Source: a virus
Virus record (IMG/VR): IMGVR_UViG_3300032397_000001
Direction: 5' to 3' (one strand)
Length of the DNA stretch: 64,000 nucleotides
Shown: positions 20,731 through 62,800 of the stretch, in pieces
How positions within the stretch are numbered: the first letter of the stretch is position 1
How the letters are laid out: every line of letters starts with the position of its first letter
Notes under the pieces: generated by a model
The model's input: the letters and a program-made list of their open reading frames with translations, nothing else
Told to the model about the DNA's origin: nothing
The model's database searches: none
Program-made: the position numbers and the translations under genes

Positions 20731-20766
20731 TCTTTTTTGATTGTATGAAACGCTTGTGAGGATAAA

Positions 20767-23450: not shown

Positions 23451-23532
23451 GTCATTTTATACATTAGATCTTTCAGAGTTTCCTAAATATGTATTCGAGA
23501 ACTTAGATAAGTTTAGAGAGTTATTAGCATGA
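23447..23532 (+). pseudogene. deletion remnant: C-terminus resembling GT17-type glycosyltransferases
   Basis: frame 23452-23532 reads SFYTLDLSEFPKYVFENLDKFRELLA* and is ATGA-coupled to the next gene, but is out of frame with ATG 23447. Confidence 0.4.
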
Positions 23533-27246: not shown

Positions 27247-29505
27247 ATGAATGATGAAGATAAGGATAAAGATCCAGGAGTATGCGTTTTTTGTGGAGCA
27301 CCATTTGTTTGGGTGAGACCAGGAAAAGTGCAGGAGACTTGTGATTGCTTCTTACCAGTAGAAGGAGTAACACAGGGGCAACATAAACAGTTATTACAGG
27401 AGCACGCGAAACTAATTGTTTACCGAGATCACTGGGAGACATCTTACGATGTCGCTACAGTACGAGCATTCAACGCTGAGAAGCAGGTTACTACTATCGA
27501 CTTGAAGGTGAAGAAGCTGATGGAAGAAAATACGGAACTCAAGCGCCAGTTAGATGAGAAGTATGAACAACTCAACATCCAAGCACACAATGAGAGAGTG
27601 TTGAATCAGGGTAGAGAATGAAATGAGTGATCCACATTTACCTGTTGACGAGTGGGGTGATACTCTCAGAGAATGTACTAAGCACCCTGGGTGTCAGTAT
27701 ACTGTGGATTCGGAGTGTGAAAAATGTATGGAATCAGAACTATCAAAGATAGACTTCATTAAGATAGAGGATTGTTGTTGTGGACATAATGAAGGGCATC
27801 CATGGAAATGCCATTGTGTATTCTGTTGTATCTGTGGTAAGTATCTCAGAGAAGATCCTCATGGGGATGATGAATTTGATGTATGTCCTGAATGTTATGA
27901 AGGAGAAATAGGACGATGATGGGTGAAGGAACCATATGGCCAGAACGGAATGTTATTTTCGCTTGGCTTGAAAAACATGGCATCGGTGAAAACGTAGTAT
28001 CGCACCAACAGGCGATTGAATTATCAGAAGCTATAACTACTTGTCGCTTGAAGATTCAGGCTGATCTCACTAGAGAGCGAGACAATAGGGGTACATACGG
28101 GAGGATTATAGATGAAATAATAAAACCGAATTGGGCTGAGGAATCAGGAAAAGCTAGAACACATGAATATTATGATGTGTGCTACTTGAATGCGCTTGGG
28201 TATTGGCCTAATCACAAAGTTCCAGAATGGACTAAAGAAATTGTGGTTAGAATGGGTTATTCACTTACCAACTTTTGTATTATAGAGTATGCATTCCTTA
28301 AAGAGATTGCAGAATTACGACAATGTCTACTGTTGAAAGATCAGTAAAGGAGGGACAAACGATGCAGATAACAGTATGTAATATATGTAATAGTGAAATC
28401 AAACATGATGCTGGGATGAGAGATGGTAAATTCCTTATACAGGCAAAGACCAAAGAAGCTGGAATGCTTAAGGTGGAGATTTCTTGTGATAAGAAATCCA
28501 ACTGTGATATTCATCGGGATTGTCTAGCCGAGATGGTTAACAAGATTATTAGGGGCGGTTATAACAACACAGAGGAGACTTAAGAGATGCAAGTGAAAAA
28601 TTTAGAAGGACTTGTAGACGGAATCATTCGAGAGGAATATGGTGGGTGTCATCCGAGTCGAGATCAGGTTTGTCATTTGAAGGCTAAGGTAGAAGATCAC
28701 GTCGTCAAAGTTTTCGTTGTAGGGAAGTGGAGAACCATTCGATATTATAGCCCCAACAAAAAGATTCCCTCTGAAAAGATTGTAGCGGAATGTATTCATA
28801 CTGTTCGTGTGAATACAGGGGGAACTTTTGAAGGGAAAGATATCGTTCTAGATTGGGAATGAAAGGAGAAGAGAAATGCAAGTAGCCCCTGATTGGAGCA
28901 TGGTTGGAACAGTAGAAAAAATTGAACACGAACTCGTTGGTTTCAAATTTGAAGGTCCGGGTATTTACTTTATAAAGACTGATACACTTTTGATTGTGCC
29001 AAGACCCACAACCGGATCACGTACCGTAGAAAACATTTGGCATCTGAAACAACCCGAAGGTACGGTCTACGAAGTATATGTATACAACACTCCTGAAACA
29101 ATCTTCAAGGCGATAGGACGAGCACCCATAAGACAGGATGATAGAGACTAAGGAGCAAAGATGATGAGTTATAAGTATCACGCACCTCTAGATCTTGAAT
29201 GTCCAGAGGTAGTGAAATTCAATAGATGATCCAATAACAATAGAGTCAGGTTAAGGAAGAACTAGATGAGATTTAGAGTTAAGTGTCTGCAGATCAAGAC
29301 GGAGGCGTTCTATACTTTCAACGACACTGAATTTGGAGATTGTATTCAAAAGGCGATCGAGATAAGTATAAAGCTTCCGAAATATGAATTCATTTTAGAA
29401 GGTGTTCGATATGATCATTGGGAGCGATCTTTCCCACTTGTCAAATTCAAAGATGGTAAGAGAGTATGGTCAGATCACAAACTTCTCTTACAATGTATGG
29501 AGTAA
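27247..29505 (+). other. run of about 7 small hypothetical genes (27247, 27623, 27916, 28362, 28587, 28876, 29266), several Cys-rich
   Basis: coupled ORFs with RBSs. Confidence 0.65.
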
Positions 29506-30026: not shown

Positions 30027-30936
30027 ATGATCCATGGAGCAAAGCCTGTATATCGAGATAAACTGGTTGCTCAATTCAAACTTCCAAATGGGAAATTAGT
30101 CCGTCAAGGGTTACGTGTTCCCAAAGATTGCCCCTTAACGAAAGAGGAGCGACGAATATATATCAAGCTTGGTGCTGTAAAGTTGGTCAAAGCTCTTATG
30201 AAAGGGAGGGGTTTAAGTCTTCAGGAGAGTGTCGACCTTCTTGAGGCAAGTAGGTGAGGGAGAAGGCCATGCGAGGAAAGGCTGAGCGTCGAGAACAGCG
30301 GATCCGGTTGAAGGGCCATGGGCTGGCGGAGGATCTCGTCAGTTATTACAACGTCCTCATACAGTCGCCGGTCTGGGGCTCGTGGCGTGGGACGTACCTA
30401 GAGGCCCGGATGAATACCATGCGTGACCAGGCCGCAAAGGAGGACCAAAATGATATGTAAGGAGTGTGGAGAGTATTGGACACCTCCCATCGGGTGGTAT
30501 CTGATACATCCGGTCGAAGAGTCTATCTGTGCCTCATGTCTTTTGATACTTCAACCGCCCTACGGGGCAAGGAAAGGAGAACCACATGGAATGCAGAGAG
30601 TGCGGTAGAGACATTGACGAGCGAATCGGGGAGTGCCGGTGGACGGATTGTCATCCGTCTACGCTCTGCTGTAGAGCGGACATTTCCAACGCCACCGAGA
30701 AGGGGCACGACTCCGATTGTGGCGGAGACCCTCAGGCGGGTTGGCTTGTCTGCCCAACCTGTCGCAGGATTTGGACTTATCGGGCCGGATCAACTCCCCG
30801 CCGGACAGAGGAGTTTGAGAGACTGCCTGATGGGCAGACCGCAAAGATTCGAAGGAGAGTCGAGGATGCTCTCCGTAAGAATCCCAATGGGGTGATCCGG
30901 GTAGCGGCTCTGCTCGGAGTCTCACTCGCCGAGTAG
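30027..30936 (+). other. small hypothetical genes (30027, 30254, 30450, 30586), GC-richer from about 30250
   Basis: coupled ORFs; 30586 has Zn-finger CxxC motifs. Confidence 0.6.
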
Positions 30937-31089
30937 CCCACCGGATCGGACTACGACGAGTGGGGATACTCAGACCTTTCCGAGATCGAGACAGTCAGAA
31001 ACCGCATGGGCCTTGAAATGGAGCGTGATCTGTACTTTAAGCCGTGTCCTGTCAGCACTTGCATCGCAAAGTCAGCAAGCAATCGATGA
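30937..31089 (+). pseudogene. DUF2958-like C-terminal fragment
   Basis: DEWGYSDLSEIETVRNRMGLEMERDLYFKP; no start; in frame behind TAG 30934; ATGA-coupled to 31086. Confidence 0.6.
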
Positions 31090-39026: not shown

Positions 39027-39366
39027 AGGAATAAGGTAATGAGTGCAATGAGTTTAGCTCGTGATGTCTGTAGTCTTACTGCTACAGTAACAATTGCTTG
39101 GATTATAGTGTTAGTTTGGAAGTTCGTTTTATATATTGTTACCTATCAGGAGGATGATTGATGAGTTTACCTGGAGATGTTATTTATCTAGAAGCTGTTA
39201 TGCCGGGTGGAAAAGTGATAATAGGGTCATGGGTGCTTCCAGACAGAAGCCTAACAAATTTTGACGCACAAGCAGATATTGGGTGGCATATCATGCTGTG
39301 CATGTTAGATGGAGCTACTGAGGTCAAAGTTAGAGTGGATAAACCAAAGGAGAAGGAGGAGAAGAC

Positions 39367-39705
39367 ATGAGGGATATGGTGAGGGATTGGATTAAGGACC
39401 AAGAGAATGAGTGCTGCGAATATTTTGAGAAGAGTAAAAATGAAGCCCTCTCAGCCCTCGATGCAGAGCGTGCCGAGCACGCCCAAGTAAAGAAACAACT
39501 CCTTGACCTCAACAGTAGAATTCAAGATGAACTCAATGCTGCCAAATTTTCCCTAAATGATGTTCAGAGTCTAGTCGGGATACAGCAGGAGGAAGTCGCC
39601 AACCTCAAACAGCGCATCGCCGAGCTTGAGGCGCACCCATATCGAGAATATCAACTGCAGCTTGCGAGACTTTTGCATACAGAGGAGAAGGAGGAGAAGC
39701 CATGA
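39367..39705 (+). CDS. mosaic coiled-coil protein, scaffold family 1
   Basis: ALDAERAEHA...EVANLKQRIAELE...EKEEKP. Confidence 0.75.
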   Translation: MRDMVRDWIKDQENECCEYFEKSKNEALSALDAERAEHAQVKKQLLDLNSRIQDELNAAKFSLNDVQSLVGIQQEEVANLKQRIAELEAHPYREYQLQLARLLHTEEKEEKP

Positions 39706-40004
39706 GCGACGTTGTGCGTGACTTCCTCTGGAGCCAGAAGGTGCATGGCTGCTATGGGGCCGTGGATGCCCTTGTCGCCCTCGACGCAGAGCGTGTCGAG
39801 CACGCCAGGCAGGTTGAGGATATCAAGTTCCGCTGCACTTGGCTCCATAGCGATCTTGAGCAGCAGGTTGCCGACCTCAAGAGAGAACTGCGAGATACGA
39901 ACCACACGAACAATATGTGCATCGTCGACCTCCGGCAGCGCATCTCCGAGCTGGAGGCACAAAAATGTGGGTGTGGGTTGCTGGATGAGGAGGAGCAGCC
40001 ATGA
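39702..40004 (+). CDS. mosaic coiled-coil protein, family 1
   Basis: MSDVVRD...ALDAERVEHARQ...QVADL...QRISELE. Confidence 0.75.
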   Translation: MSDVVRDFLWSQKVHGCYGAVDALVALDAERVEHARQVEDIKFRCTWLHSDLEQQVADLKRELRDTNHTNNMCIVDLRQRISELEAQKCGCGLLDEEEQP

Positions 40005-40183
40005 TCGGGAGTATGGTGAAGCATGTCCTGCACAATTATGTCCCATGGCGCAGTCAAAACTCTCTATGGTATGAAGCCCTAGCCGACCTTGAAGCGTTGC
40101 AGGCGAGGGTGAAAGATCAAGAGCAGCGCATCGCCGACCTTGAGGCACAGCTTCAGGACGAGAAGGAGGAGGAGACCCCATGA
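40001..40183 (+). CDS. small protein with the family-1 C-terminal box
   Basis: QRIADLE...EKEEETP. Confidence 0.65.
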   Translation: MIGSMVKHVLHNYVPWRSQNSLWYEALADLEALQARVKDQEQRIADLEAQLQDEKEEETP

Positions 40184-40280
40184 CTTTTCCCGACTCATTT
40201 ATTATTGGCTGGCTACTGGGTGCAATCACCGGGTTGCTTGGAGCCCTACTGTATCTGAGTCTGTAAGGAGGGGAGAAGCC

Positions 40281-40769
40281 ATGAGCGACGTGACGCCTAT
40301 GTGTAAAGGGTGTGAAAAGTTATTTGCTCTGCTGACGGCAGAACGTGCCGAGCACGCAGGGCATATTGTCGATCTGGAACAACATATTAAAGCCCTCGAC
40401 ATTCGGTGGGACAAAAGAGAGTATGCCAAGGAGGTTGCCGACCTCAAAAAGGAACTTACCAGAGTGAGTTGTATGCATTCGGATGCACATGCGAAGGTGA
40501 TCAATTTGGAGAAGCAGGTTGATGACCTTCAGAGGACAATTGACTTTCTGAGGCAGCGCATCCACGAGCTGGATGCCGAACATGCCGAGCAAATTTCCGA
40601 CCTTGCGGAAGGTAACTTGCGTGTACAGCATGTTGCTGCTGTTGAAAATAGTAGGCTGAGACAGGAAGTTGCCTCTCTTCAAGAGCAAAACAACTTCCTT
40701 GTGTTAGAACTTGAGATTATATCTGAGTTAAAACAACAAATTGAAGTAAAAGTAAAACAACTTCCTTAA
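40281..40769 (+). CDS. mosaic coiled-coil protein, family 1 (repeated boxes)
   Basis: MSDV...AERAEHA...EVADL...QRIHELDAEHAEQ. Confidence 0.75.
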   Translation: MSDVTPMCKGCEKLFALLTAERAEHAGHIVDLEQHIKALDIRWDKREYAKEVADLKKELTRVSCMHSDAHAKVINLEKQVDDLQRTIDFLRQRIHELDAEHAEQISDLAEGNLRVQHVAAVENSRLRQEVASLQEQNNFLVLELEIISELKQQIEVKVKQLP

Positions 40770-40840
40770 TGAGTTAGATGAAAAGGGAATCTTCTGGAGA
40801 TATGGAAACTTAGGCTAATAAGGAATAAGGAATAAATAAA

Positions 40841-41252
40841 ATGAGATTGGATATTGTTATAGTTGCTAAAACAAAAGAAGAGTTTGTTGGCGCATTACAG
40901 TCTATGATAGAACAAGTTCAATTATCTAATACTCCATCTAATTCGTCTATGATTACTGAAGATGGAATAGATGTGGATTTTTCATTTACTGATTGTGATG
41001 ATATATATGCTGATATATCTAATTGTAAAGTAATTTTCCCCTCAGATTATTATGAAAGGGTAGCAAAAAATGAACAAGGAGATTAGTTTGAAGAAAGTTG
41101 CAAACTTAGGCTATGGACTTACTATCAAAAAGGATGATCTAGGATATTATTTAATTTTAAATAATGATAATAAAAATGTAATTGTATTGAATGGTCCTTG
41201 GTTAGATTGGGCGAAGAATGAAGAACGGTGGGAAGAACCGGGAACATGGTGA
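40841..41252 (+). other. two very AT-rich small genes (40841-41086, 41070-41252) inserted in the array
   Basis: abrupt composition shift; followed by a 14-bp repeat x3 (41253-41297). Confidence 0.6.
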
Positions 41253-41335
41253 CAGGATAGGTGAATCAGGACAGGTGAATCAGGACAGGTGAATCAGATT
41301 GCGAGACTTTTGCATACAGAGAAGGAGGAGAAGCC

Positions 41336-41884
41336 ATGAAAGACGGCAAGCGCGAGGCAATCTCAAAGGTGTTGGACGTAGCCCGGGAACTCATCGAGCA
41401 GCACCTCGACGAGCACCACGGGCCGCATGTTCATCATGTTGCGCTTGGGATAGGGGTTATGTCAGGGCTTCCGATTGAATATGTTCCCGAGGAATCCGTG
41501 AATTATCCTACTGATCCTGACTACCCTCCCACCAGGCTGAGCGGGACGATGGAGCCTGAGTGGTGTAAACATCTTGTTACGCATACAGAGAATGACAAGC
41601 TTGTGTGCAGTGGGTGTGGTGCAATTGGAAATGACCTGAGCAAGAGCTGTGGTATCGAATGGCCCAAGGTCAAGAATCCGGGGAACAAGATCAAGGTGGG
41701 GTGCGAGTATTGCGCCTATTCCACCGCGTCAGGGTGGCCGACTCGTTGTCTCTGCCGTCGGTATCCTCCTCCGGATCCGAGGGAACCTGGGCCGGATGCA
41801 AAGCTCTCCCGTTGGCCGATAGTGCATATCCAGTCGTGGTGTGGTGAGTTTGATCCTGGAGAAGGTTTCCCGTTCCGCTGGTAA
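41336..41884 (+). CDS. mosaic Zn-finger protein, family 2
   Basis: EQHLDEHHGPH, PTRLSGTMEPE, CRRYPP...WPIV...WCGEF. Confidence 0.7.
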   Translation: MKDGKREAISKVLDVARELIEQHLDEHHGPHVHHVALGIGVMSGLPIEYVPEESVNYPTDPDYPPTRLSGTMEPEWCKHLVTHTENDKLVCSGCGAIGNDLSKSCGIEWPKVKNPGNKIKVGCEYCAYSTASGWPTRCLCRRYPPPDPREPGPDAKLSRWPIVHIQSWCGEFDPGEGFPFRW

Positions 41885-41895
41885 GGAGGAGTGAC

Positions 41896-42372
41896 ATGAG
41901 TTTCGCCCAAGCCTATGTATGCAATCAATGCGGCCTGGCTCAAAGGAAGTACGTTCCTCCTCTCTGGACCACCCCGATAGCTTTTCACCAATGCTGCCCA
42001 CAATGCGGGGCAGGAATAGAGGATATTCGTCTGGCAATAGGAGAATGGAAACAACAAAGAATAGTGCGCGGATTGTGGCCGTTCAGATTTGTTGAATATG
42101 TGGATAGCGTATTTGAAGAAAAACCAGAATGCCGCAGAACCAGCGCCACAGATGTGGACATTACCAGGCATTGCCCCGTCTGCGTAGTTGACGACGATTC
42201 ACCGACGAGGCTAGGCGGGACGATGGAGCCGGAGCATCAGTTTGTCACCAGGGATGATTTCGATCAATTCCGCTCTTGGCTGAGCCAGCAGAGAACCGCA
42301 GAGTGGACTCGGTTGATGGAGCACTCACACGGGGTAAACGGGGAAGTAATCTTCCCGGACATGGAGGAGTGA
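41896..42372 (+). CDS. mosaic protein, family 2
   Basis: Zn ribbon, PTRLGGTMEPE, and a MEHSH box shared with 45929. Confidence 0.7.
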   Translation: MSFAQAYVCNQCGLAQRKYVPPLWTTPIAFHQCCPQCGAGIEDIRLAIGEWKQQRIVRGLWPFRFVEYVDSVFEEKPECRRTSATDVDITRHCPVCVVDDDSPTRLGGTMEPEHQFVTRDDFDQFRSWLSQQRTAEWTRLMEHSHGVNGEVIFPDMEE

Positions 42373-42505
42373 AACGAAATGAAAACCATGCTAGGTGCGT
42401 GCTTCGGATTCGTTTTCGGTTACCTAATTATCTGTCTCATCTTCAATAAGCTGAGAAGGAAGTCGCCAACCTCAAACAGCGCATCGCCGAGCTGGAGGAA
42501 GGACG

Positions 42506-42911
42506 ATGACTGAAAAAAGGAAATTGTGCCCATTGTTAATGATGGGATGGATGGCATGTCCAAAGGATTTCGGCAAAGACGCAGGAGGTATCTGTTGTTG
42601 TAAAAAGGAAAAATGTGCTTGGTGGTATGAGAATTATGCAGGATGCAGTGTTTGGGTAATGGCTAGAGAACTGGATGGGATAGAAGAAAAAACCACATAA
42701 AAGGAGGAGTGACATGGAAGCACTGCTACATTCTGTGGAAAAGACGATGGAGAACTTCACACTGTTCATGAATACCACTGTGACTGGGTTTGAACTCATG
42801 GGGAAAGTCTTTGAAAAGCTACAGAACGAAATCTACATACTGGGATTCTGGTGTCTTGGTATCACGGTTTGGCTGGCTGCACTTTCGTGGCGCTCAAGAA
42901 AGAAGGAGTAG
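42506..42911 (+). other. two small genes (Cys-rich 42506-42700; TM-anchored 42714-42911)
   Basis: GGAGGA RBSs. Confidence 0.6.
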
Positions 42912-42978
42912 TAGTACGGATAGAAGAACCCGAGTGGCTTATGGTCTGGCACGACCGTTTGGTAGGAAGGGGACTAAC

Positions 42979-43527
42979 ATGAGGGAAAGGAAGGGCCGGG
43001 TAATAAGAGTGATGGTTTGTTCTATGGTTGCGGTGATCTTTTCGCTGGTCAGTCTGGCTATCATTCTTTTCACTTTAGGCGACTGCACCGATTCCTCGAC
43101 CGAGGCCTGGCCAGCGGATTTCTGGGTTTCCGGGATCCTCGTCTTCGGTGACGTTCTCCCTGACGAGCAGGATGCCATCACCCGGCTCTCTACTGCCATT
43201 CAGGCTCTTAGCTATTCCATCGACGGCCTCCCCACCGTGATCTTCATTCGCTCACCTGATCAGCATATCCCCAAGATCTGCAAGTGCAGTCACTGCACTG
43301 ACGTATGGTCCGAAGTGCCCGGCGTGATCGGAGTCAAGGAGCGAGTAGCCGGCGAGGGACTGAGCGGCCTTCGGCGCGGAGGGATGATCTTCGTGAGCCG
43401 GATCGGAGACCGGAAGGGAATGCTGGACGAACTCCTGGCGCATGAATTCGCACATTGGCTTTGCGACTGCGGGGATGGAGTGAGGGTTGGTGTGTTGGAA
43501 GGAGAGTTGATTAAGAGGATGTTGTAA
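42979..43527 (+). CDS. membrane-anchored HExxH metallopeptidase-like protein
   Basis: N-terminal TM helix; LLAHEFAH. Confidence 0.55.
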   Translation: MRERKGRVIRVMVCSMVAVIFSLVSLAIILFTLGDCTDSSTEAWPADFWVSGILVFGDVLPDEQDAITRLSTAIQALSYSIDGLPTVIFIRSPDQHIPKICKCSHCTDVWSEVPGVIGVKERVAGEGLSGLRRGGMIFVSRIGDRKGMLDELLAHEFAHWLCDCGDGVRVGVLEGELIKRML

Positions 43528-43683
43528 CTGAAAGGAGTAGTGATATGTTTTTCATCGGAACCGTTCGTCGATTTCTATTTATCGTCGGTAGTCATCGTTG
43601 GAACGCATGGGTGCGAGACTTTACTGCCAGACTTGAAGGATCATGGTTGATAAGAAGTCGGCCACAAAAGAAGGAGTAACATT

Positions 43684-44157
43684 ATGGACTTTGAAAAGGT
43701 AAGCCCCCACGGCTTTATGATCAAGACCTTTGAGAGATATGACCAGCAGCTACGTATTGAATTGGATAGAGATTATTTGCGACGAGACGATATTGACCCT
43801 CCCGGTGATGACGTGATCCGTGAACACCTTATCGAGCACCACCAGTCGCTAATGAAATGGTATGAGAACCATCTAGAGGGTCATGCAGATGCAAAACCAC
43901 CAGACGATCCCTGCCATGGACCGGAGAAGGTGACCTGCTTACACGAAGAGACCTATACCACAAATGACAAACGTGTATGTTTGTTTTGCAGAAAGACTAT
44001 GCACGATTCGCCGCAGCGGTGCGAGTGCAACGACTGTAAAAATATCACATGGGGAGTGAAGAGTAATGGGGTAGAACCTATAAGGTTTTGTCCATTCACT
44101 GGCATGCTAGATGGTCGACCAGCAAGCCGTAAGTTACTGAAGGCCGAGAAGGAATAG
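43684..44157 (+). CDS. mosaic protein, family 2
   Basis: REHLIEHH; C-terminal Zn motifs. Confidence 0.65.
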   Translation: MDFEKVSPHGFMIKTFERYDQQLRIELDRDYLRRDDIDPPGDDVIREHLIEHHQSLMKWYENHLEGHADAKPPDDPCHGPEKVTCLHEETYTTNDKRVCLFCRKTMHDSPQRCECNDCKNITWGVKSNGVEPIRFCPFTGMLDGRPASRKLLKAEKE

Positions 44158-44832
44158 TGAGATGATGTATATCTGCAAGCAAGGTCATATTTTCTCTTCT
44201 AAATCCACTGAGCCTATCTGCCCTACATGCGGTCGCCGCTTGGAGCGAGCGATCTGGGATGACTCCCAGAAGAGGTATATCATGATTCGTCCCTCTAAGA
44301 GGAAGGCTAGGAAGAAGGAGGAGTGAGATATGCGTTGCCCTGAATGTATCAAGCTTGGAATGGTATCTAGAGTTTACTCAGATGGGTGCTCAATGACCCT
44401 CATGGCTATTTTGGAATGGGCACTATTATAACCCGAACAAAACAACTTGCTCCTACCATTGTTCAAATGGCTATGCTTTCTCGGAAGCATCCGGTGGCAG
44501 ATCTCCACCGGATGATGAGAGGTGAGACATGCTATACAGCGGACTTCCACCTAATTTGGTGATTACTCTGGGCATTGTAGCCCTCACTGTCTGTTTTTTC
44601 GGAGCAATAAATGGAGCATTTCTGTTGCTAGACGGGCTTGACCTTCTGAAATGAACGGACGAAGGAGGGGGCGAGATGAAGATGAACAGTTGGCGTTGGT
44701 TCGTTTTAGGATATATAGTAGGGGCCATAGCAGCTACTATTTCAGCCCTATATCTCATCTAGGAGTAGGCGTGTTTACCTTACCTATTGGTGGTTTGCCC
44801 GGCCATTGGAGTTTCCGAAAGGACCAAGTTCG

Positions 44833-45147
44833 ATGAGCGACATAGTGATGAACTATATTAAAGCAAGTAATTGGACACCCCACAAAGAAGATATAATTGT
44901 TGCCCTTAAGGCCGAGCGTGTTGAGCACGCGAGACAGACTGCCAAGCTTGAGGCTAAAGCTCAAATATCTTTCGACGGAGAAAGTAGGATGCTTTCGGTT
45001 GTTGCCGACCTCACCGAGCAACTGGAGGAAGCTACTGATATCATCAAAAAACTGCTTGGTGTAAATCAAGTGAGTGATGAGGAAATGGTTAAAGCTATCG
45101 AGTGGGCAAAGAAGTCTCCAGCAATGAGAAATTCTGTTGAGAAGTAA
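44833..45147 (+). CDS. mosaic coiled-coil protein, family 1
   Basis: MSDIV...ALKAERVEHARQ...VVADL. Confidence 0.7.
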   Translation: MSDIVMNYIKASNWTPHKEDIIVALKAERVEHARQTAKLEAKAQISFDGESRMLSVVADLTEQLEEATDIIKKLLGVNQVSDEEMVKAIEWAKKSPAMRNSVEK

Positions 45148-45148
45148 T

Positions 45149-45589
45149 ATGGGCGGACCAAAAATAAGCGATGGTTTGAGTCGACAACGACGTTGGCAAT
45201 TACGTCGCACTGCAGAAGGATGTTGTCAGACGTGTGGGCTTCCACTAAATAAGCATTCTTATCAATGTGATTCTTGCTCCGAAAAGAGCACGATCCGAGA
45301 AAAGCGGCGTTATAAACAACGAATATCAAATGGGAAATGCCCCTGCTGTGGTAGAGAGCATTCATCATCAACCGTTGTTTGTCCAGAATGTCTTGAAGAT
45401 AAATCTTCAAGAGTAAAGAGACTGAAGTCTGAGGGAAGATGTATCAGATGTGGAGCTATAACAGAAGGTAGATTCAGTTGTAACGCTTGTATTGTTATTG
45501 GGCGTGAGAGAGCTCGAAAGAGAAGAGGTTGTGTAAGACGTAATATTAATGCTATGTCATATCAAATCAGTAAGGAGGGAGTAAAATGA
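45149..45589 (+). CDS. basic protein with three GxCxxCG...CxxC repeats
   Basis: repeated Zn-binding units. Confidence 0.65.
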   Translation: MGGPKISDGLSRQRRWQLRRTAEGCCQTCGLPLNKHSYQCDSCSEKSTIREKRRYKQRISNGKCPCCGREHSSSTVVCPECLEDKSSRVKRLKSEGRCIRCGAITEGRFSCNACIVIGRERARKRRGCVRRNINAMSYQISKEGVK

Positions 45590-45928
45590 AACTGTGGGAT
45601 AGAGTGAGAGGTACAGCTGTCGTAGCAGGAATTCATATTATGAATAAGGTTAGCAAAGAAGTTTATTTCTAAGCCCGCCTGGGGTCAGGTTAACCTTGCA
45701 ACGTTCGGGACGGAGACCTGGCCTATATTCAGCGAACAGGATGAAAAGGGAGAGGATAAAGATGCTACTCTGTGACCACGCTATTGAGTGCGGCCAGCGA
45801 TGTAAGCACGCCATTGCTCACGAGTCTTTCGGTCAGCAGTGCGAGGGGGAGTGGAAGTGCGTACATGTTAAGGCCGATGAGCGAACTCTGTGCAAGCCAC
45901 TCAAGGAGAAGGAGAAGGAGGAGAAGTG

Positions 45929-46453
45929 ATGCACAAGATTGACTGGGAAGGTCTGAAGCGTCTTCATGGAGATAATTGGACTATCGAACTCGTCCGGCAA
46001 CTGGATGAGCGGTTTGCAAAGAGGGAGGAATTTGAGGAACACAGTAAGTGGCTGCTCAGTCAACAAACAGCAGCATGGGATAGGATAATGGATCATAGTC
46101 ACTCGGCGAAAGGAGAACTTGTATTTCCACCGACGGAGCCCATCACGGTTACCCGAAACATGGTGGGGGCCTGCAGTCCCATCGAGGAGGATGAGATCCA
46201 GCCAAACACGGTCTGTGACAGCGAAGTTGGATGTGTAACTTTCCCAGAGGATTGGGTTGTAGACACCGTGACGGCAACGCAGCGGGGTTGCAAGTGCCCG
46301 TTATGCTATTCGGTGGTCCAGCCGAAGGCGGAGTGTAATCATCCATGCCACGTGATTAACCGTTCTGGACTCCACTATGCGGAGGTCACCGGGAAGTGGG
46401 CATACTGTGCTAGATGTGGCCTCTCGCTGGCCGCGAAGGAGGAGAAGACATGA
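45929..46453 (+). CDS. mosaic protein, family 2
   Basis: WDRIMDHSH box; WAYCARCG...KEEKT. Confidence 0.7.
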   Translation: MHKIDWEGLKRLHGDNWTIELVRQLDERFAKREEFEEHSKWLLSQQTAAWDRIMDHSHSAKGELVFPPTEPITVTRNMVGACSPIEEDEIQPNTVCDSEVGCVTFPEDWVVDTVTATQRGCKCPLCYSVVQPKAECNHPCHVINRSGLHYAEVTGKWAYCARCGLSLAAKEEKT

Positions 46454-46737
46454 ACTGGAAAAAAGTAAATGAGTGCTGGAACACTAAGAGTGACATCACC
46501 TATGCGCTTGAGGAGATGCTACGTCAGCACCTGGAGGAGTGCCACAAAGAGATAGTGCAGTTAAAATGCCCAGGCTGCGAGCAGTGGTTCGCAAGTGACA
46601 GGTGGATGAAAAAGCCAGCCAAGCTGTGTGAGTGTACAAATAGAATCTGCGGTAGATCGCAGATCAACGGAGTCTGGGTTAATTGGGACTATTGTCCGAA
46701 GTGCGGAAAGCTGCTGGAGAAGGAGGAGAAGCCATGA
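46450..46737 (+). CDS. mosaic Zn-ribbon protein, family 2
   Basis: RQHLEECH; WDYCPKCGKLLEKEEKP. Confidence 0.7.
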   Translation: MNWKKVNECWNTKSDITYALEEMLRQHLEECHKEIVQLKCPGCEQWFASDRWMKKPAKLCECTNRICGRSQINGVWVNWDYCPKCGKLLEKEEKP

Positions 46738-46872
46738 ACCGTCTAGCAATGATTGATTTTCTAAACACCAGACTTCGATCATTCAAAACCCCTTGGTATC
46801 GATGGGCAATAGATATTACATGGGACAAACTTGAGCGATGGGCAAAAATGCTTGGATGGAAGGAGAAGTGAT

Positions 46873-47265
46873 ATGGACTGGGGCCAGGAGCGTACCGAGT
46901 ACGAGAAGGAGATTGATAACCTAAACCAAGATCGGGCTAACGGGTGTGCATGCCTATTTGTGAATTCTGTTTGCATGTCTCAGTGTTCTTATCACGCCAA
47001 GCAGGTTGTCGACCTACAAGCAAAACTGGAAGCCTGGTATACTTGGTATTCTTTCCCCAAGTGGAGGAGAGACGATAGTCACGCCACGCAGGTTAAGGAT
47101 TTAGAAACACAGATAATCGACTTACGGCGGCAGATACACAAAATAAAAAAAATGTATTCTGCTTTGTCTGGCCCTCGCGCTCATGGACTGGGTTGCGATT
47201 GTGGTGAGCAAGTTAAAAGCGGCTATACTTGTAAACAGTTTTCGGACCTCATGAAGGAGGAGTAA
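46873..47265 (+). CDS. mosaic protein with family-1 boxes
   Basis: HAKQVVDL, HATQVKDL. Confidence 0.65.
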   Translation: MDWGQERTEYEKEIDNLNQDRANGCACLFVNSVCMSQCSYHAKQVVDLQAKLEAWYTWYSFPKWRRDDSHATQVKDLETQIIDLRRQIHKIKKMYSALSGPRAHGLGCDCGEQVKSGYTCKQFSDLMKEE

Positions 47266-47624
47266 TGGATTGGAAGAAGATATATCTGGAGATACAAAGT
47301 AGAGGCTGTCATGAAGATTTTCCTCAAGATTTAATTGATGCGTTGCGGGAGTATAACTGTCAGCACCTAGCCAAGCACCACGGGCCACATCGTCATCGCT
47401 TTGGAGATGGGGTGTGGGTAACTGGAAGTGAGTTGCCTATGGATAAACCGGCAGTTGACGACGACCCTCCGACGAGGTTGAGCGGGACGATGGAGCCGGA
47501 GCGGAGCGAGTGCGACGGCTCATGCCATGACCCAGTTAATTACAATTTCTACCACATCGACAGAGGATGGGAGTTCTGCCCTTGGTGTGGCAAGCCACTC
47601 GACAAGAAGGAGGAGAAGCCATGA
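47265..47624 (+). CDS. mosaic protein, family 2
   Basis: QHLAKHHGPH, PTRLSGTMEPE, WEFCPWCGKPLDKKEEKP. Confidence 0.75.
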   Translation: MDWKKIYLEIQSRGCHEDFPQDLIDALREYNCQHLAKHHGPHRHRFGDGVWVTGSELPMDKPAVDDDPPTRLSGTMEPERSECDGSCHDPVNYNFYHIDRGWEFCPWCGKPLDKKEEKP

Positions 47625-47950
47625 GCGACGTGGTGGGGGAGTTCATCAACAGTGAGGATTGCGAACATCCCTCTGCTTGCTTTACCGAAACTCACATCTG
47701 CACAAAATGCCGAATCATTGCACGACAAGCCCTCGACGCAGAGCGTGTCGAGCACCAGCAATCCTTGGAACTCCTAGATGCAGAATTAAAAAGACAGTCA
47801 GAGGCACTGCATTTCGGAACGTCCCAATTTGTACTCAACAAAAGAGCCGATGAACTCGTAAGGCAGGTAGCCGACCTCCAGCAACGCATCTCCGATCTTA
47901 AGGCGAAGTCATGCCCATACCATGCTCCATGCGAGGAGAGGGATGAATAG
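47621..47950 (+). CDS. mosaic protein, family 1
   Basis: MSDVV...CEHPSACFTE...ALDAERVEH...QVADLQQRISDL. Confidence 0.75.
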   Translation: MSDVVGEFINSEDCEHPSACFTETHICTKCRIIARQALDAERVEHQQSLELLDAELKRQSEALHFGTSQFVLNKRADELVRQVADLQQRISDLKAKSCPYHAPCEERDE

Positions 47951-47992
47951 TGCTCGATTCCGAGAAAATCTATACAAGCAACTGATTACTAC

Positions 47993-48021
47993 TTGACAAT
48001 CTATTAGAAATTCGCTATACT
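47993..48021 (+). promoter_or_regulatory. near-consensus sigma70 promoter
   Basis: TTGACA-17-TATACT. Confidence 0.85.
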
Positions 48022-48043
48022 TTACTCAGGGAGAAAATACAAA

Positions 48044-48358
48044 ATGAGAATCTTTGATGTTGTGAATAAAAATAATTGTGGGTTCTTCTGTATGGCTAAA
48101 GATGAACAAGATGCACTTGCCCTTGCTAAAGAAGTTAAACATCTCAGGACTTCTCCCAAGCGTATAATTGACATAACTGAGAATCTAAAAAACGAGAATG
48201 GAATCTCTGAATTGATGATTGAACAGTATCGTGGAAGGTTATCCAAACAGATAACAGCAATTTCTTTTGATCAACTTTTGGTGTTTCCAGGTATGCACTC
48301 TCCGAGTTGTTGGATGAAATGGGGACAAAGTATTATGGTTGGTGATGGAATCTATTAA
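48044..48358 (+). CDS. hypothetical protein (moron-like, own promoter)
   Basis: GGGAG RBS, AT-rich. Confidence 0.65.
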   Translation: MRIFDVVNKNNCGFFCMAKDEQDALALAKEVKHLRTSPKRIIDITENLKNENGISELMIEQYRGRLSKQITAISFDQLLVFPGMHSPSCWMKWGQSIMVGDGIY

Positions 48359-48571
48359 AAGAGGAGGAGAAGCCATGAATAGAAATACCGAGTGGTTAAT
48401 GGGCTGGCATGATCGAATGTTTGAAAAGTACGGACACCCAAAGGGCGGGATCGACTGGTGCAGAAAGTTGGCTAATTTTATGGACGAGCTTGGCAATGAT
48501 GATCCATCAGATGCGGCGATTAAGGAGGCCATGAAGTGGGAAGCTGAAAACCCAGAGAAGGAGGAGAAGAC

Positions 48572-48835
48572 ATGAAGTATCGCAAGAAACCCATAGTGAT
48601 TGAGGCAATACGATACAATGGAGACAACTTTAATTGCATTCGCCTATTCGTTGGCAATACACCATTACATCGGGTGGGTGATGATAAACTTGGCATCCAA
48701 ACCCTTGAGGGTATAATGATAGCCAACCCAGGCGACTGGATAATCAAGGGGATAAAAGGCGAGTTTTATCCTTGCAAAAATGACATATTTGAGGCTACCT
48801 ATGATCTGTTGGTCGAGAAGGAGGAGGAGCCATGA
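48572..48835 (+). CDS. widespread phage protein (PGDYG-like)
   Basis: KYRKKPIVIEA...IQTLEG...PGDWIIKGIKGEFYPCK, ending in EKEEEP. Confidence 0.8.
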   Translation: MKYRKKPIVIEAIRYNGDNFNCIRLFVGNTPLHRVGDDKLGIQTLEGIMIANPGDWIIKGIKGEFYPCKNDIFEATYDLLVEKEEEP

Positions 48836-49104
48836 GCGACGTGGTGCGTGATGAGTTACAGATAGCGATTGGGCTGGCAACTGGTATCAACAAGCAGCGA
48901 TGGATAAATGTCCTTGCTGCCCTCGACGCAGAGCGGGAGGAGCACGCCCAAGCAGCCGAGTTGCTGAACGCTGAAGTTAAGCGGAAAGCACCAGTTGTAG
49001 AAATGTGCGACTACCGTTGCAAAGTGGACACAGATTACGAGAACTGGATGTATTGCCCAACGTGCGGTAAGTTGCTGCGATATTGGAAAGAAACTACCAG
49101 GTAA
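48832..49104 (+). CDS. hybrid: family-1 N-terminus with family-2 Zn-ribbon C-terminus
   Basis: MSDVVRD...ALDAEREEHAQ...WMYCPTCGK. Confidence 0.75.
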   Translation: MSDVVRDELQIAIGLATGINKQRWINVLAALDAEREEHAQAAELLNAEVKRKAPVVEMCDYRCKVDTDYENWMYCPTCGKLLRYWKETTR

Positions 49105-49142
49105 AGAGTGGTAGAGAAACTTTCAATGAAAACCCTATTGAC

Positions 49143-49170
49143 AAACATCTGGTGGATGTTTTTTTTTTTT
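49143..49170 (+). terminator. rho-independent terminator
   Basis: AAACATC-tggtg-GATGTTT followed by a long T run. Confidence 0.7.
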
Positions 49171-49180
49171 CTGAAAGTAC

Positions 49181-49209
49181 TTGACATCTGTTTGTAAGTA
49201 TGCTATACT
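49181..49209 (+). promoter_or_regulatory. near-consensus sigma70 promoter with extended -10
   Basis: TTGACA-17-TATACT, with TG one base upstream of the -10. Confidence 0.85.
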
Positions 49210-49243
49210 TAGATCATACAACAAACATGAAAGGGGAATTGAA

Positions 49244-49540
49244 ATGAGTACAATTCGTTTTGACTCACCTTTAGTGGAAGGATTGAGAAGAGGGATAGTA
49301 GCAGAGTTAAATTCTCAAGTTCAAAGTGACGATCCTGTAACTGAACGTCAACGTCTTGAAAAGGTTGAGGGTCAAGTATGGGATACTCAAGAACTGTCAA
49401 GAGATTTTGAAGTGTTGAGTTTTCTTGCTCCGTTTGTTGTTGTAATAAGGAAGGTTGATAATGTCAAAGGTACTTTGACCTTTCAACATCGTCCGAGATT
49501 TTATTTTGATTTTGTTGAAGATACATGGAAACCCTCATGA
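49244..49540 (+). CDS. conserved hypothetical protein (moron-like)
   Basis: GQVWDTQELSRDFEVLSFLAPFVVV...FQHRPRFYF. Confidence 0.7.
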   Translation: MSTIRFDSPLVEGLRRGIVAELNSQVQSDDPVTERQRLEKVEGQVWDTQELSRDFEVLSFLAPFVVVIRKVDNVKGTLTFQHRPRFYFDFVEDTWKPS

Positions 49541-49553
49541 AAGGAGGGGTGAG

Positions 49554-49823
49554 ATGAGCGATTTACCAAGAGCCTTTATCAACATGGAAAACTGTGATCA
49601 TCCCGCGGCTTGTTTTACGGAAATACGCATCTGTTGCCATTGTCAGATTGCAGCCCTTGCCGCCCTCGACGCAGAGCGTGAGGGGCGCGCCAAGCAGATA
49701 AGTTTATCCGAGGTCAAGATTTCTAACCTACGTTCCGAGTACGTCGGGGAGATTACTTTTCTCAACCTATGTATATTGGGGCTTGAGAAGCGGTTGCGAA
49801 ACGAGAAGGAGGAAGGACGGTGA
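49554..49823 (+). CDS. mosaic protein, family 1
   Basis: CDHPAACFTE (shared with 47621) plus ALDAERE. Confidence 0.7.
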   Translation: MSDLPRAFINMENCDHPAACFTEIRICCHCQIAALAALDAEREGRAKQISLSEVKISNLRSEYVGEITFLNLCILGLEKRLRNEKEEGR

Positions 49824-49933
49824 TCGGGGATAAGGCGAAACTGGTACTTACGGTCTATGTCCCGTACTTTAGTCAAACTGGGGCGTGGCAGAAGGGGATT
49901 AGAGAACTAGAGTCATGCAAGGAAAGCTGGTAG
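49820..49933 (+). pseudogene. frameshifted paralog of 40001
   Basis: GTG ATC GGG, then a shifted frame KAKLVLTVYVPYFSQ aligning with MVKHVLHNYVPWRSQ. Confidence 0.55.
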
Positions 49934-50038
49934 AGATCAGGCGCCGTGCTGAATCATGTCTGCGCTTTCGTTCCAGGGATGACTCACAGAAGACATTGTA
50001 TGACATCATTGACCTGATCGACAGCTTGGAGGAGTGAG

Positions 50039-50188
50039 CTAAGCGACGTCATTCGTGATGTAATTAAGGCTTGGTCTCCTGAGATAGTTGCCCTCCTCGA
50101 CGTTGAACGTGCCGAGACCGCCAAGGAGGTTGCCGACCTCGAACTGAAGGTACAAAAGAATTACTACTATAGAAAAATTATCTCCCCC
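50039..50188 (+). pseudogene. start-less family-1 cassette
   Basis: CTA in place of ATG before AGCGAC; SDVIRD...ALLDVERAETAKEVADL. Confidence 0.65.
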
Positions 50189-50215
50189 GTGAATCTTTTT
50201 CTTGGAGATGTTAAA

Positions 50216-50713
50216 ATGGAAAATGAGGAGGGAACTTTTCAGTTAGATTGGGATACAATTACGAGTCCTTTGTCAGATGATTTCAGACCATTATTAGAGT
50301 TCCTTAAAAGATATCATAAGCAACTCTGTTTAAAGTTATTAGCCTCAGCAATAATTATAGATAAGCAAGAAATTCTTATTCAGTTAAGAAATTTGAATCA
50401 GCAGGTTGACAATCTCGAAGTGAATATTGGTCGTCTTGGGGAGTATATAGATACTATTAGGAATGATTTACTAACTGAGATGAGGAGAGAATCATGGCTG
50501 AAGAAGAACATTCGAAAGATCAAGAAAGTGTTATACCAAATCTTGCGAACGCCCTTGAGAATCCTGAAGCACCTAAGAAGCGAGAACGATACCAATCACA
50601 ATCAGGATTCATTGCAGTGTCACTCCATAGAGGATATACCGAAATCGGAATCCTGGACTCAAATCTCCAATCAGAAGTCGGAAAGAGCGCCTTCATCTGT
50701 GGAGGATACGTAA
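50216..50713 (+). CDS. hypothetical coiled-coil protein
   Basis: GGAG RBS; overlaps the next gene by 220 nt. Confidence 0.5.
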   Translation: MENEEGTFQLDWDTITSPLSDDFRPLLEFLKRYHKQLCLKLLASAIIIDKQEILIQLRNLNQQVDNLEVNIGRLGEYIDTIRNDLLTEMRRESWLKKNIRKIKKVLYQILRTPLRILKHLRSENDTNHNQDSLQCHSIEDIPKSESWTQISNQKSERAPSSVEDT

Positions 50714-51303
50714 GATACTGTGCAAGCCCTCGACGTGTACCTGAACCCGCATCAGATGTAGATGTGTACTGTAAGGATGAAGAGACGTTTCTACATCTGA
50801 AGGAATTCTTCAAGAGAATTGATTTGAGTGTACGTCATGAGAATGACATCTCTCTCACGTATACGTTGCCCAAAGAGAGTACTCATCCATACTTCTATGC
50901 ACCTGCTGTTCAGTTGATTAAACCTATACGTGAAGGACGTGTTGTAGCGAATGGTTCAATGGTAGAGATTCTCGAGAATTTCGATTTCACTGTCATTCGT
51001 TGTGGTTTAATAGATGAGAATACAGCTATGGTTGATGCGGACTTTCTCCATGATGAGGAACATAAAGAATTACGTTTGAAAACTATCCATTGTCCCATCA
51101 GTAGTACACTTCGTTGTATGAAGTACGCAAGGAAGGGATATTGGTTAAGACCGTTTGAATGTTTGAGACTCTTTCTGGATTGGGAATCACGGTCTGAAGA
51201 TTATCGTAACAAGTTACGCAACTTTCTTGAGAAGTCGGCAATTAATGGTGAATTCACAAAAGAAGAGGTAAATGAGCTCGAGGCTTTAATGAGAATAGAT
51301 TAG
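50494..51303 (+). CDS. nucleotidyltransferase (CCA/poly(A) polymerase head-like)
   Basis: FICGGYVR, SDVDVY, ILENFDFTV. Confidence 0.8.
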   Translation: MAEEEHSKDQESVIPNLANALENPEAPKKRERYQSQSGFIAVSLHRGYTEIGILDSNLQSEVGKSAFICGGYVRYCASPRRVPEPASDVDVYCKDEETFLHLKEFFKRIDLSVRHENDISLTYTLPKESTHPYFYAPAVQLIKPIREGRVVANGSMVEILENFDFTVIRCGLIDENTAMVDADFLHDEEHKELRLKTIHCPISSTLRCMKYARKGYWLRPFECLRLFLDWESRSEDYRNKLRNFLEKSAINGEFTKEEVNELEALMRID

Positions 51304-59896: not shown

Positions 59897-62800
59897 ATGT
59901 TTCGTAAAACATTTTTTTTACTTCTAGTAGTCTTCTTATCTTTCTTAACAAGCCCGAGCTTAGCTCAGCAACTTCGCGATGTGCGGGTAAGTGGTTATTT
60001 ACGCCTTGGTGATACCGTTGATGCTACGGTGGCTAACCTGCGTTATCATAATGGACATTTTGAAGGTTATTCTGGTAGTGGTTGGGCACAACTTGATGGC
60101 TATTTTGGCCATGGTTCATTGATTGATTTAACTTCTTCCGATGCCCATACACAGTATGCACTTTTAGTTGGACGTTCTGGTGGTCAAACTTTATATGGCA
60201 GTTCTTTAGCTAGTGAGAATTTAACTCTTAATGCTACGTCTAATGCAACTCCTGGCAAAGTTATAGTAAATTCTATAGTTAATGGTACTGTACATATCAA
60301 TCCTAATTTTGGATATCTTAATATAGGCCCTTATTCCGATCTTAGTTCTCCTTCATTTTTATTTATAAATCGTGATGGAGGATTATCTAGTCCATTAATT
60401 CGTAGTTATGTAGCGAGTAGTCAAGGTAATGCGATTGTTTCTCAACGTGCTAGAGGTTCTTTAGCTTCTCCTTCTTCTTCTCTCTCGGGCGATGTTATTT
60501 TTTCCTTTGGTGGAGAAGGTTATAATGGTAGTGCTTGGACGGGAGATAATAGTGCAGTTGAACAATTTGTAGCATCTGGGGATTTTGGATTAAAACAATA
60601 TCCAACTAAAATTTGTATGGCTACTACGGCCCCTGGTGCTACTACTCGATCGATTAATTGGTCTCTTTCTGATTGGGGTCGTGTAGGAATAGGTTCAGAT
60701 CAACAGTCTATCTCTACTTTCTATGTGCGTTCACAGGTTGTTTTTGATTTTGTTTATTATTATAATGGATCAACATTTACTAGTAGAAGTGCTGAAAGTA
60801 AGACTACATTTGGGACACCTTTTATTATCCTTAGTGATAATGATGATTATCTTTATGTTAGTGGTATTGCGACTACAAATGGACAATTTACTACTGTATA
60901 TTTTGATCTTGCTACTATTGGGGCTGGGGTAACTTTAGTTAAAGAATATTGGAATGGTTCTATATGGACGGCCCTTTCTGTTACTGATGGTACTTCTAAC
61001 TTAACACAATCAGGAGCAATTACGTTTACTGCTCCTACTAATTGGGAATTAACTACTGTTAATACATATAATCGTTATTGGGTTAGATTTTCCACAACTT
61101 CTAATCCTGGAGTATCTCCAACTTGTAATTATATGTTGGCTGAGAATGTTCCTCGGTTATATATTCTTGCTAATTATGCTGATGATACTCCTTCATTAAA
61201 GGTTGGTCATAATGCTCAAGTTTCTTTATATTATGGAACAGGTATTAATGAATTCTCAACTGATGGTACTTTGGGTGGTAATTCTGACTTAGCATTGCCT
61301 ACAGAAAAAGCTGTTAAAACTTATGTAGATAGTTCCACAGGAAGTCAGTATCTTTTAGCTAATGGTACTCGTCCGCTTACTGGTGCATGGAATGCTGGAA
61401 ATTATGTTATTACAGCAGGTGGTTTTAGTTTACGTAGTGCAGAAGTAACTTTAGCTAATATTACTTCGCCAGCTGATGGACAGTTTACATTTGCCCCACA
61501 ATCAGCAAATATTGATACTACATTCAATTTTACAGGTACTACCTACTCCGGGATACTCAAATGGATGGAAGATGAAAATGCTTTCGTCTTCGAAGATCAA
61601 GTCCTTATCGGTATAAGTGCTTGGGCTCCACCCGCAATTTCTTTGGTAGTTTCGGATCCGTTTGCGTTTGGAGTTGCAGTTCATGATACCATTGGGATCC
61701 GTGCAGGGTTGAGTGGGGGTAACAATACGCTCCCATCGAGTCTTGGTGGGATTACATGGCTTCAAACCGCAGATCCAACGAAGGACCCAAGGATCCAGTA
61801 CGTTATCGACAACCCGGGGTCCTTCAGTTACGGGCATCTAGAATTCTGGGCAAGACTTGGTACTGGGTTATCCCAGGAGGTCTTCCGGGTTGGTGGTACA
61901 GGAGTTGTTACGTTCACTCCTCCTGCCGATACAGACCTGACTTTCAACTTTATGGGAACGACCAACTCCGGGTTACTCAAGTGGATGGAAGATGAAAATG
62001 CTTTCTACTTTGCAAATAATATGGGTATTGGTACAACTACTCCAACACAATATGCAAGATTACATGTTAAAAGCGATGATCATACACTTATAGTTTGTGA
62101 AGCTCCAACTGGTTATACAGCACAGTTTGAATTAATGAAGGCAGGGGCTAAGGTTTGGTCTATGCTCTCTCCTGCAAATTCGACCGATTTACAATTTGAT
62201 AATACTGCGGTTAGAGCAACCATCACTGCTGCTGGTAATATGGGTATTGGTACAACTACTCCAATACAATATGCAAGATTACATGTTAAAAGCGATGATC
62301 ATACAGTTATAGTTTGTGAAGCTCCAACTGGTTATACAGCGGGGTATCAACTTTTTAAATCTGGTGTAAAAGCATGGTCTATAGAAACTCAGGCAAATTC
62401 GACCGATTTACGATTTTTTAATACTGAGGATAGAGTAACCATCACTGCTGCTGGTAATATGGGTATTGGTACAACTACTCCAATTGCTAATGCAAGATTG
62501 CATGTTAAAAGCGATATTGATACAGTTATAGCTTGTGAAGCTCCAACTGGTTATACAACACAGTTTGAATTAAGGAAGGCAGGGGATAAGGTTTGGTCTG
62601 TATATATTCCTGCAAATTCGACCAATTTACAATTTTATAGTGGGGTAACTACTGCGGTTAGAGCAACCATCACTGCTGCTGGTAATATGGGTATTGGTAC
62701 AACTACTCCTAATTCACCATTAGATGTTGTCGGGACAACGCAAACAGACATCTTGAGAATCGACGACGCTGCCGGAACGACATATATGAGCAGCGGGACT

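Follow-up and report, generated by a model that had tools for sequence, protein, structure and literature searches.

An array of small phage genes assembled from interchangeable pieces at short conserved DNA joints

The stretch of DNA analysed here, referred to as the window, comprises 64,000 nucleotides of the virus record IMGVR_UViG_3300032397_000001 and belongs to a phage contig measuring up to 169,308 bp, with a GC content of 39%. On its + strand, between positions 39350 and 50713, the window carries an array of about fifteen small accessory genes put together from exchangeable pieces that meet at short DNA joints of conserved sequence, here called boxes. In our best reading, what this phage carries is one sample from a construction kit that several unrelated phages, probably of one host, have in common. 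The array is not a dedicated diversifier; the diversity sits in the pool shared among phages.

Boxes and gene families of the array

The window has tail-like genes at its left and genes for a 5'-3' exonuclease and a ribonucleotide reductase at its right. The GC content of this backbone is 38–40%, whereas the 38–50 kb region reaches 43–50%, with AT-rich genes interleaved among the others. Resolved by part, the GC fraction is 0.65 in the boxes, 0.45 in the variable parts and 0.40 in the backbone, in agreement with an earlier, sequence-only reading of this DNA, which had described the segments between boxes as often more AT-rich.

A self-comparison of the window recovers all five boxes at the places previously reported for them and confines them to 39.3–50.2 kb. 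Box 2 is present in eight copies, at 39454, 39777, 47729, 48919 and 49662, with variants at 40329, 44902 and 50093; the copy at 39454–39483 is a crossover point of the chimera P0005 described below. Box 3, a repeated joint that flanks the middle inserts (for example at 39862–39878), has nine copies, at 39862, 40429, 44996, 47862, 50124, 39590, 40513, 42457 and 47000. The six copies of box 4 lie at 39610, 39936 (spanning 39936–39958), 40124, 40554, 42477 and 47882. Boxes 5 and 1 together form a linker with 11–12 copies in the array, one of which spans 39685–39710. With fixed mismatch limits, set equally for the array and for approximately 52 kb of backbone, the backbone contains no linker, no box 2, no box 4 and two short box 3 matches. 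Boxes 2 and 4, the linker and the family B joint introduced below occur on the + strand only, and the two reverse matches to box 3 overlap forward copies.

Box 5, previously described as an EKEEKP junction, is a coding tail that doubles as a Shine-Dalgarno sequence with an overlapping stop and start, and thereby provides the ribosome-binding site of the next gene. It also stands upstream of genes that do not belong to family A, at 41336, 45929, 46450, 46734, 48375 and 48572.

Conservation of the boxes extends to silent sites. At positions encoding the same residue, the same codon is used at a frequency of 0.74 in box 2, 0.69 in box 3, 0.79 in box 4 and 1.00 in the linker, against about 0.3–0.55 expected from codon usage. 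The third codon positions within the boxes are thus largely conserved, as had been proposed from the sequence alone, and the boxes are not preserved merely as protein motifs.

A family profile identifies ten family A frames and no comparable frame elsewhere in the window. The previous count of at least eight genes on shared boxes is thereby upheld and extended by the frames at 40001 and 46873 and by two remnants, at 41295–41345 and 42454–42498. The array also contains a second family, B, which had not been recognized before. Its genes, at 41336, 41896, 45929, 46450 and 47265, encode Cys/His mini-domains and have joints of their own, including a family B joint present in three copies at 41528, 42202 and 47469 (the last spanning 47469–47497).

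Predicted protein architecture

Family A proteins follow a constant order. They open with a start box and a variable head, continue with box 2 and from none to several inserts, each of which ends in box 3, and conclude with box 4, a variable tail and the linker. Family B follows a parallel grammar with its Cys/His mini-domains. The empty scaffold is represented by P0008, a protein of 59 residues in which boxes 2, 3 and 4 follow one another in perfect heptads (labels of the form P00nn denote homologous proteins, and L0nn fetched contigs or loci). Among 47 distinct inserts, 21 have a length that is a multiple of seven residues (p = 5e-7) and nine have a length of 7n+4, while none has a length of 7n+3.

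The AlphaFold2 model of the protein encoded at 39702 consists of a short helix (residues 3–14) and a continuous 70-residue helix (residues 20–89), with a pLDDT of 91. Predicted as a dimer, it reaches a score of 0.59, compared with 0.00 for the best control, and the runs agree to at least 91% with a pLDDT of at least 84. Of the solved pairs of one chain, 20 of 30 attain this mark, compared with 1 of 23 single chains. This result supports, but does not show, a parallel dimer, as the score may reflect a generic likeness to coiled coils. The inserts of the family tend to keep the heptad register of this predicted dimeric coiled coil.

Chimeric relatives and box-bounded indels

Protein searches returned approximately 55 further family A and 14 further family B proteins, whose names are uninformative. 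Other phage contigs, with a GC content of 38–58%, hold segments of the window at 84–97% identity in new orders. A three-way chimera, P0005 (L025, 2735–3004), corresponds to 39357–39483 (92%), then to 39777–39878 (93%) and finally to 47863–47949 (86%). These pieces represent the head of the 39367 gene, the first insert of the 39702 gene and the tail of the 47621 gene, and their overlaps are box 2 and box 3. The P0005 protein is present in four assemblies.

Parsing of 65 family proteins yielded 186 segments in 105 clusters. Thirty-three clusters recur, every one of them in more than one context, and 64 of the 65 architectures are distinct, a figure inflated by the clustering of the databases. 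For two heads and one insert that is either present or absent, all four combinations were found (P0010, P0019, 40281 and P0049), and such a set cannot arise on a tree unless there is exchange or repeated loss.

The ends of DNA matches between the window and other phages fall close to a box 24 times out of 54, where the null fraction is 0.22 (p = 1.4e-4). In a hand tally of family A alone, 20 of 28 match ends lie near a box. The match ends of family B are mostly away from defined boxes, but the positions 45986 and 46130 come up again in independent loci, a hint of further joints. A breakpoint test at the protein level with a generous null was weak (0.65 versus 0.56), and we relied on the DNA test instead. 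The relatives are chimeras that switch at boxes rather than collinear orthologs, and their breakpoints are related to the boxes, consistent with the earlier proposal that the boxes act as recombination handles within a coiled-coil scaffold.

Pairs of closely related contigs show single events. L022 and L023, which represent the same phage with 96–98% identical flanks, differ by a 153-nt in-frame insert between 18-bp box 3 repeats that are identical at 15 of 18 positions. Between L025 and L026 (98–99%) the difference amounts to about 490 nt, with 11 identical base pairs at its bounds, and two family B genes are fused in frame; L029 also has the short form, and L027 and L028 have the long one, so that each form is present in at least two assemblies. 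Relative to L030, L053 lacks 60 nt and has a B gene fused to an A gene; this difference does not lie at a defined box.

The variable segments evolve under purifying rather than diversifying selection, with a pooled dN/dS of 0.26 outside the boxes (some segments being counted more than once). The synonymous divergence of shared segments, pS, ranges from 0 to about 1, indicating exchange of many ages, both recent and old.

Carrier phages

The carriers have almost nothing else in common with the window backbone, and they hold the kit genes in varied settings. Among the small phages, the kit genes adjoin RusA and terminase genes in L041, lie within a terminase-portal block in L044 and stand before a replication initiator in L053. 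They are located between genes for a PD-(D/E)XK exonuclease and a Sak4-like protein (E = 3e-5) in L062, and in L063 they directly follow genes for an exonuclease and a RecT-like annealing protein (E = 1e-17). In the terminase-portal interval of L044 (2408–5251), a family B gene lies between NeuB and short-chain dehydrogenase genes, with a CTP transferase gene next to them. The first gene of L053 was considered as a Rad52-like candidate; its model was poor (pLDDT 43) and its fold search empty, and we make no claim for it.

The high GC content of the boxes suggests that the large phage took the kit from GC-rich phages. Elsewhere in the window, at 30269–31037, there is a small GC-rich island with genes of 57–59% GC, of which 30949–31037 is 72% identical to L063; this likeness suggests a further import from small phages. 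The host was not found, as four matches in GTDB look like chance matches in high-GC genomes. The contig names are mostly of the Ga03152xx type, which probably denotes metagenomes of lake sediment. A scan of viral contigs with box 2 alone returned 16 contigs, all high in GC and unrelated, and scans with three longer patterns and one protein gave no match.

Origin of the array

We consider it likely that the kit is shaped by general recombination at the short homologies of the boxes, acting within genomes and between phages of one host, mediated by annealing or host proteins and filtered by selection. The boxes are direct homologies of 11–30 bp in one reading frame and one heptad phase, and general recombination between two copies, whether both lie in one genome or belong to different phages or prophages in a co-infection, would swap, delete or add a segment. 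Because all joints share this frame and phase, a crossover between two of them would tend to leave a continuous coiled coil, and one between linkers a coupled operon. The product would remain an in-frame, translationally coupled coiled-coil protein, and selection would retain the products that work. Each crossover within a box would also copy that box, which would keep its silent sites uniform. The crossovers may be catalysed by proteins of the RecT or Sak4 type or by host proteins, the carriers presumably share a host, and the kit genes are probably expressed early.

Several points weigh against this explanation. About half of the match ends lie away from defined boxes, including most of those in family B, and the boxes lengthen alignments, which biases match ends towards them. 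The junction homologies of 11–18 bp are short for RecA-type recombination. All crossovers were read from assembled sequences and none was seen happening; the relatives come mostly from metagenomic contigs of short length, two of them (the L036 tail and L029) pass from one genome background to another and are possible misjoins, and clustering of the homologue sets at 90% or 50% inflates the apparent diversity. The switch in L036, a 154-kb assembly of the phage, occurs at a point corresponding to window position 46168, where its last 1.7 kb (11337–13037) change to other kit genes and a methyltransferase gene. It may be a real recombinant or a misjoin and, lying 1.7 kb from the contig end, was not used as evidence.

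An alternative, which we regard as unlikely, is that recombination strikes anywhere and that only junctions preserving the frame, the heptad register and the ribosome-binding site survive, the boxes being conserved protein motifs whose likeness at the DNA level comes from recent common ancestry. The heptad bias and the purifying selection do show constraint at the protein level, the linker is a Shine-Dalgarno sequence that would be conserved in any case, and both the 60-nt fusion of L030/L053 and the L036 switch lie off the defined boxes; this is also the second model stated in PMC3233612. However, silent sites in the boxes are 68–79% identical between genes with unrelated flanks, and the indels are exact and bounded by short direct homologies. 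The two models are compatible, selection probably filtering what the homologies generate. Much the same low probability attaches to the idea that evolution has made the boxes a recombinase-independent standard for assembling proteins, maintained by selection at the DNA level for evolvability across a guild of AT-rich large and GC-rich small phages; in-frame joints in heptad register and heterodimerising, co-expressed paralogues would then multiply the repertoire of anti-defence or host-takeover binders. A further explanation takes most of the mosaic relatives to be chimeras formed in assembly or in the library, and the array to consist of decayed paralogues. Most carrier contigs are indeed only 0.5–8 kb long, the L036 tail and L029 change genome background, and P0018 ends in what we take to be a translated sequencing adapter. 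Yet the shared segments differ from the window by 3–16% and thus are not window reads, the junction homologies are shorter than usual assembler k-mers, and both alleles of the L025/L026 indel, as well as P0005, recur in independent JGI and ENA assemblies, which makes this explanation highly improbable.

The sequence-only reading had gone further and proposed that the phage generates a protein library of its own, a comparison with antibody frameworks and CDRs (complementarity-determining regions) included. A dedicated, high-rate diversifier encoded by the phage, similar to a shufflon or a diversity-generating retroelement (DGR) and producing a library in each population, would fit the very regular grammar and the presence of about 15 kit genes in one genome, and approximately 105 kb of the 169-kb contig lie outside the searched part. 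We nevertheless consider it very unlikely. Eight assemblies (L031–L035 and L038–L040) are 100% identical to the window over the covered parts of the array, an identity that holds at the assembly level, where rare variants are concealed, and in L037 the sole differences from the window are close to the end of the contig. The boxes themselves form degenerate direct repeats rather than inverted recombinase sites, and the dN/dS value given above indicates constraint. Among the proteins of the window, the part of the genome that was searched, no recombinase, integrase or reverse transcriptase was found, in line with the earlier remark that no recombinase is visible. The library claim is therefore not sustained for this phage, and the antibody analogy overstates the case.

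Possible function

We favour the idea that the proteins are oligomeric adaptors similar to Ea22, which would display small variable domains to targets in the host at an early stage of infection. The analogy draws on the architecture, the gene position, two near-consensus promoter sites (47993 and 49181) and a neighbouring gene with an unreproduced Gad2 match. A specific role in anti-defence is possible but rather doubtful. Searches of the kit proteins against Pfam, PHROG, Atlas, BFVD and PDB returned only generic coiled-coil or zinc-ribbon noise, and the kit proteins match no known anti-defence protein.

Individual genes and other features of the window

All features of the array described here are on the + strand. 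The first family A gene (39367–39705, 112 aa) has an N-segment in common with P0005 and P0006 (92% at the DNA level) and a C-segment in common with P0013 and P0015 (96%). It is followed by the gene of the putative parallel dimer (39702–40004, 100 aa), which has two middle inserts, and by a gene lacking box 2 (40001–40183, 60 aa), whose version in L021 is 94% identical and contains an extra Cys-rich insert. The gene at 40281–40769 (162 aa) has middle inserts as in P0010 and P0012 (97% at the DNA level) and an N-segment as in the L036 tail (95%). Two remnants follow. The scar at 41295–41345 is derived from the tail of the 39367 gene and its linker (89% to 39658–39711) and is immediately preceded by three 14-bp tandem units at 41255–41300, while an orphan box 3 and box 4 stand after a stop codon at 42454–42498 (96% to 39587–39631). 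The protein encoded at 44833–45147 (104 aa) is found in identical form on 23 contigs. The family A-related gene at 46873–47265 (130 aa) has box 3 and shared C-segments and no box 2. The N-segment of the gene at 47621–47950 (109 aa) is present in L062 (87%), its middle and C-segments in L050 (94%) and its C-segment also in L025. Of the remaining genes, that at 48832–49104 (90 aa) has an N-segment in common with P0013, and that at 49554–49823 (89 aa) has an N-segment related to that of the 47621 gene (68% over 106 bp). The last copy, at 50039–50713, had been called a pseudogene; its ATG start codon is lost, but the frame is otherwise open to 50713.

Family B begins with a gene at 41336–41884 (182 aa; joints at 41399 and 41528), the start of which is common to L029 (86%), and a gene at 41896–42372 (158 aa; joint at 42202), the N-part of which resembles P0041 in L041 (84%). 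Within the gene at 45929–46453 (174 aa), the stretches 45986–46130 and 46200–46338 recur in L026, L050, L053, L054 and L062. The family also includes a gene of 95 aa at 46450–46737 and that at 47265–47624 (119 aa), the latter with its N-segment in L044 (93%) and L026 and its C-segment in L021. A Cys/His mini-gene at 45741–45929, with a linker at its end, is common to L062 (70%).

The phrog_419 gene at 48572–48835 stands between two linkers, and its homologue in L021 is fused to box 1. It was considered as a candidate Acb4; it has no solved relative in PDB and is not Acb4 by sequence. Beyond the array, the homologue in L020 of the backbone gene at 27623–27739 begins with the kit linker and box 1, indicating that the linker can capture genes from beyond the array. 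Two sigma-70-type promoter-like sites lie at 47993–48021 (11/12 match, 17-nt spacer) and at 49181–49209 (11/12 match, extended -10); both are consensus matches only, the total number of such sites being at chance level. The promoter-like stretch at 47964–48003 is common to another AT-rich phage lineage (L025, L026 and L029; 93–96%). Just past the array, a gene of 269 aa (50494–51303) has relatives at 54–63% in three large AT-rich viral contigs, and the array is absent from these relatives. A precomputed match of this gene to PF26128 (Gad2) was not reproduced in a Pfam search, and the protein has no match in PDB.

Further repeats and clusters are found elsewhere in the window. A perfect 150-bp duplication with partial copies (11004–11157 and 12439–12715) among small genes marks a second shuffled spot, and an island of small genes is bordered on either side by non-coding tandem repeat arrays (9729–10124 and 14241–15140), possibly termini or an origin. 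The gene at 59897–62917 (1006 aa) contains three internal repeats of about 219 bp (62017–62714). For an AT-rich gene cluster at 18389–24329, a pooled scan that took in these genes lists methyltransferase, glycosyltransferase and SAM decarboxylase families, which were not mapped to single genes.

Comparison with known systems

Whether the junctions of phage mosaics are targeted by short conserved homologies or result from filtering by selection is an old open question (PMC3233612). The family described here provides natural crossovers mapped to the base at joints of 11–18 bp, as well as sub-gene segments that a 169-kb AT-rich phage and small GC-rich phages have recently exchanged. Its short segments, of which there are dozens, evolve under purifying selection while the scaffold stays constant, and they could be screened as a set for activity in anti-defence or in host binding.

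Ea22 and the exo-xis region of lambda and Shiga toxin (Stx) phages consist of small accessory genes whose products have a variable N-part, a central coiled coil and an exchangeable C-terminal domain (PMC10834534, PMC7093339). The kit proteins likewise have a variable head, a central coiled coil and a variable tail, and they also end in a common C-terminal tag, which is +GE in Ea22 and the linker peptide in the kit. In L063 the kit genes lie downstream of exonuclease and annealing-protein genes, as does ea22 in lambda (PMC10834534); such genes are nearby in L062, whereas the window has no such neighbours. By sequence, however, the kit is not a member of the Ead/Ea22 family (PF13935). An hhalign comparison with Ea22 gave a probability of 1.3%, the profile score of 8.9 bits equals the best of 200 shuffles, PF13935 is not among the 25 listed of 113 weak Pfam matches, and no phage record matches P0008. 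The kit differs further from Ea22 in its ten paralogues in one genome, its several internal joints, its variable number of inserts and its second, Cys/His family.

Shufflons and diversity-generating retroelements place variable protein parts on a constant frame. Unlike these systems, the array has no inverted sites, no recombinase or reverse transcriptase within the window and no population variation at the assembly level; nor does it contain a pair of template and variable repeats, as no long near-identical pair was found in it.

In the boundary-sequence model, short conserved sequences at gene boundaries target homologous recombination (PMC3233612). The kit linker is such a sequence, and the kit shares with this model short sequences, conserved at the DNA level, that lie between unrelated modules and coincide with breakpoints. 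Most kit joints, however, are inside genes, in frame and in heptad register, and shuffle segments of 15–50 residues rather than whole genes. The PeSL cassettes of T4-type phages are non-coding promoter/stem-loop cassettes, and recombination between their copies leads to indels and replacements (PMC2839356). Both systems have short elements that are repeated among small ORFans, in a hyperplastic region of a large phage, but the kit boxes code for protein, and neither of the promoter-like sites (47993 and 49181) falls within a box.

Phage recombinases of the Rad52-like and Sak4 types carry out relaxed homologous recombination (PMC3945230, PMC2896510), and RecT-like (L063) and Sak4-like (L062) genes adjoin the kit. 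Recent mosaics with more than 90% identity are flanked by traces of homology, and none was detected between virulent Escherichia coli phages and temperate ones (PMC3945230). In contrast, a 169-kb phage with 39% GC here shares near-identical segments with small phages of 51–58% GC, the lifestyles of these phages not being established. In a literature search of incomplete coverage, we found no description of a multi-joint, register-preserving kit across unrelated phages. The array thus represents a known kind of gene shuffling in phages, in a form that is unusually regular and community-wide.

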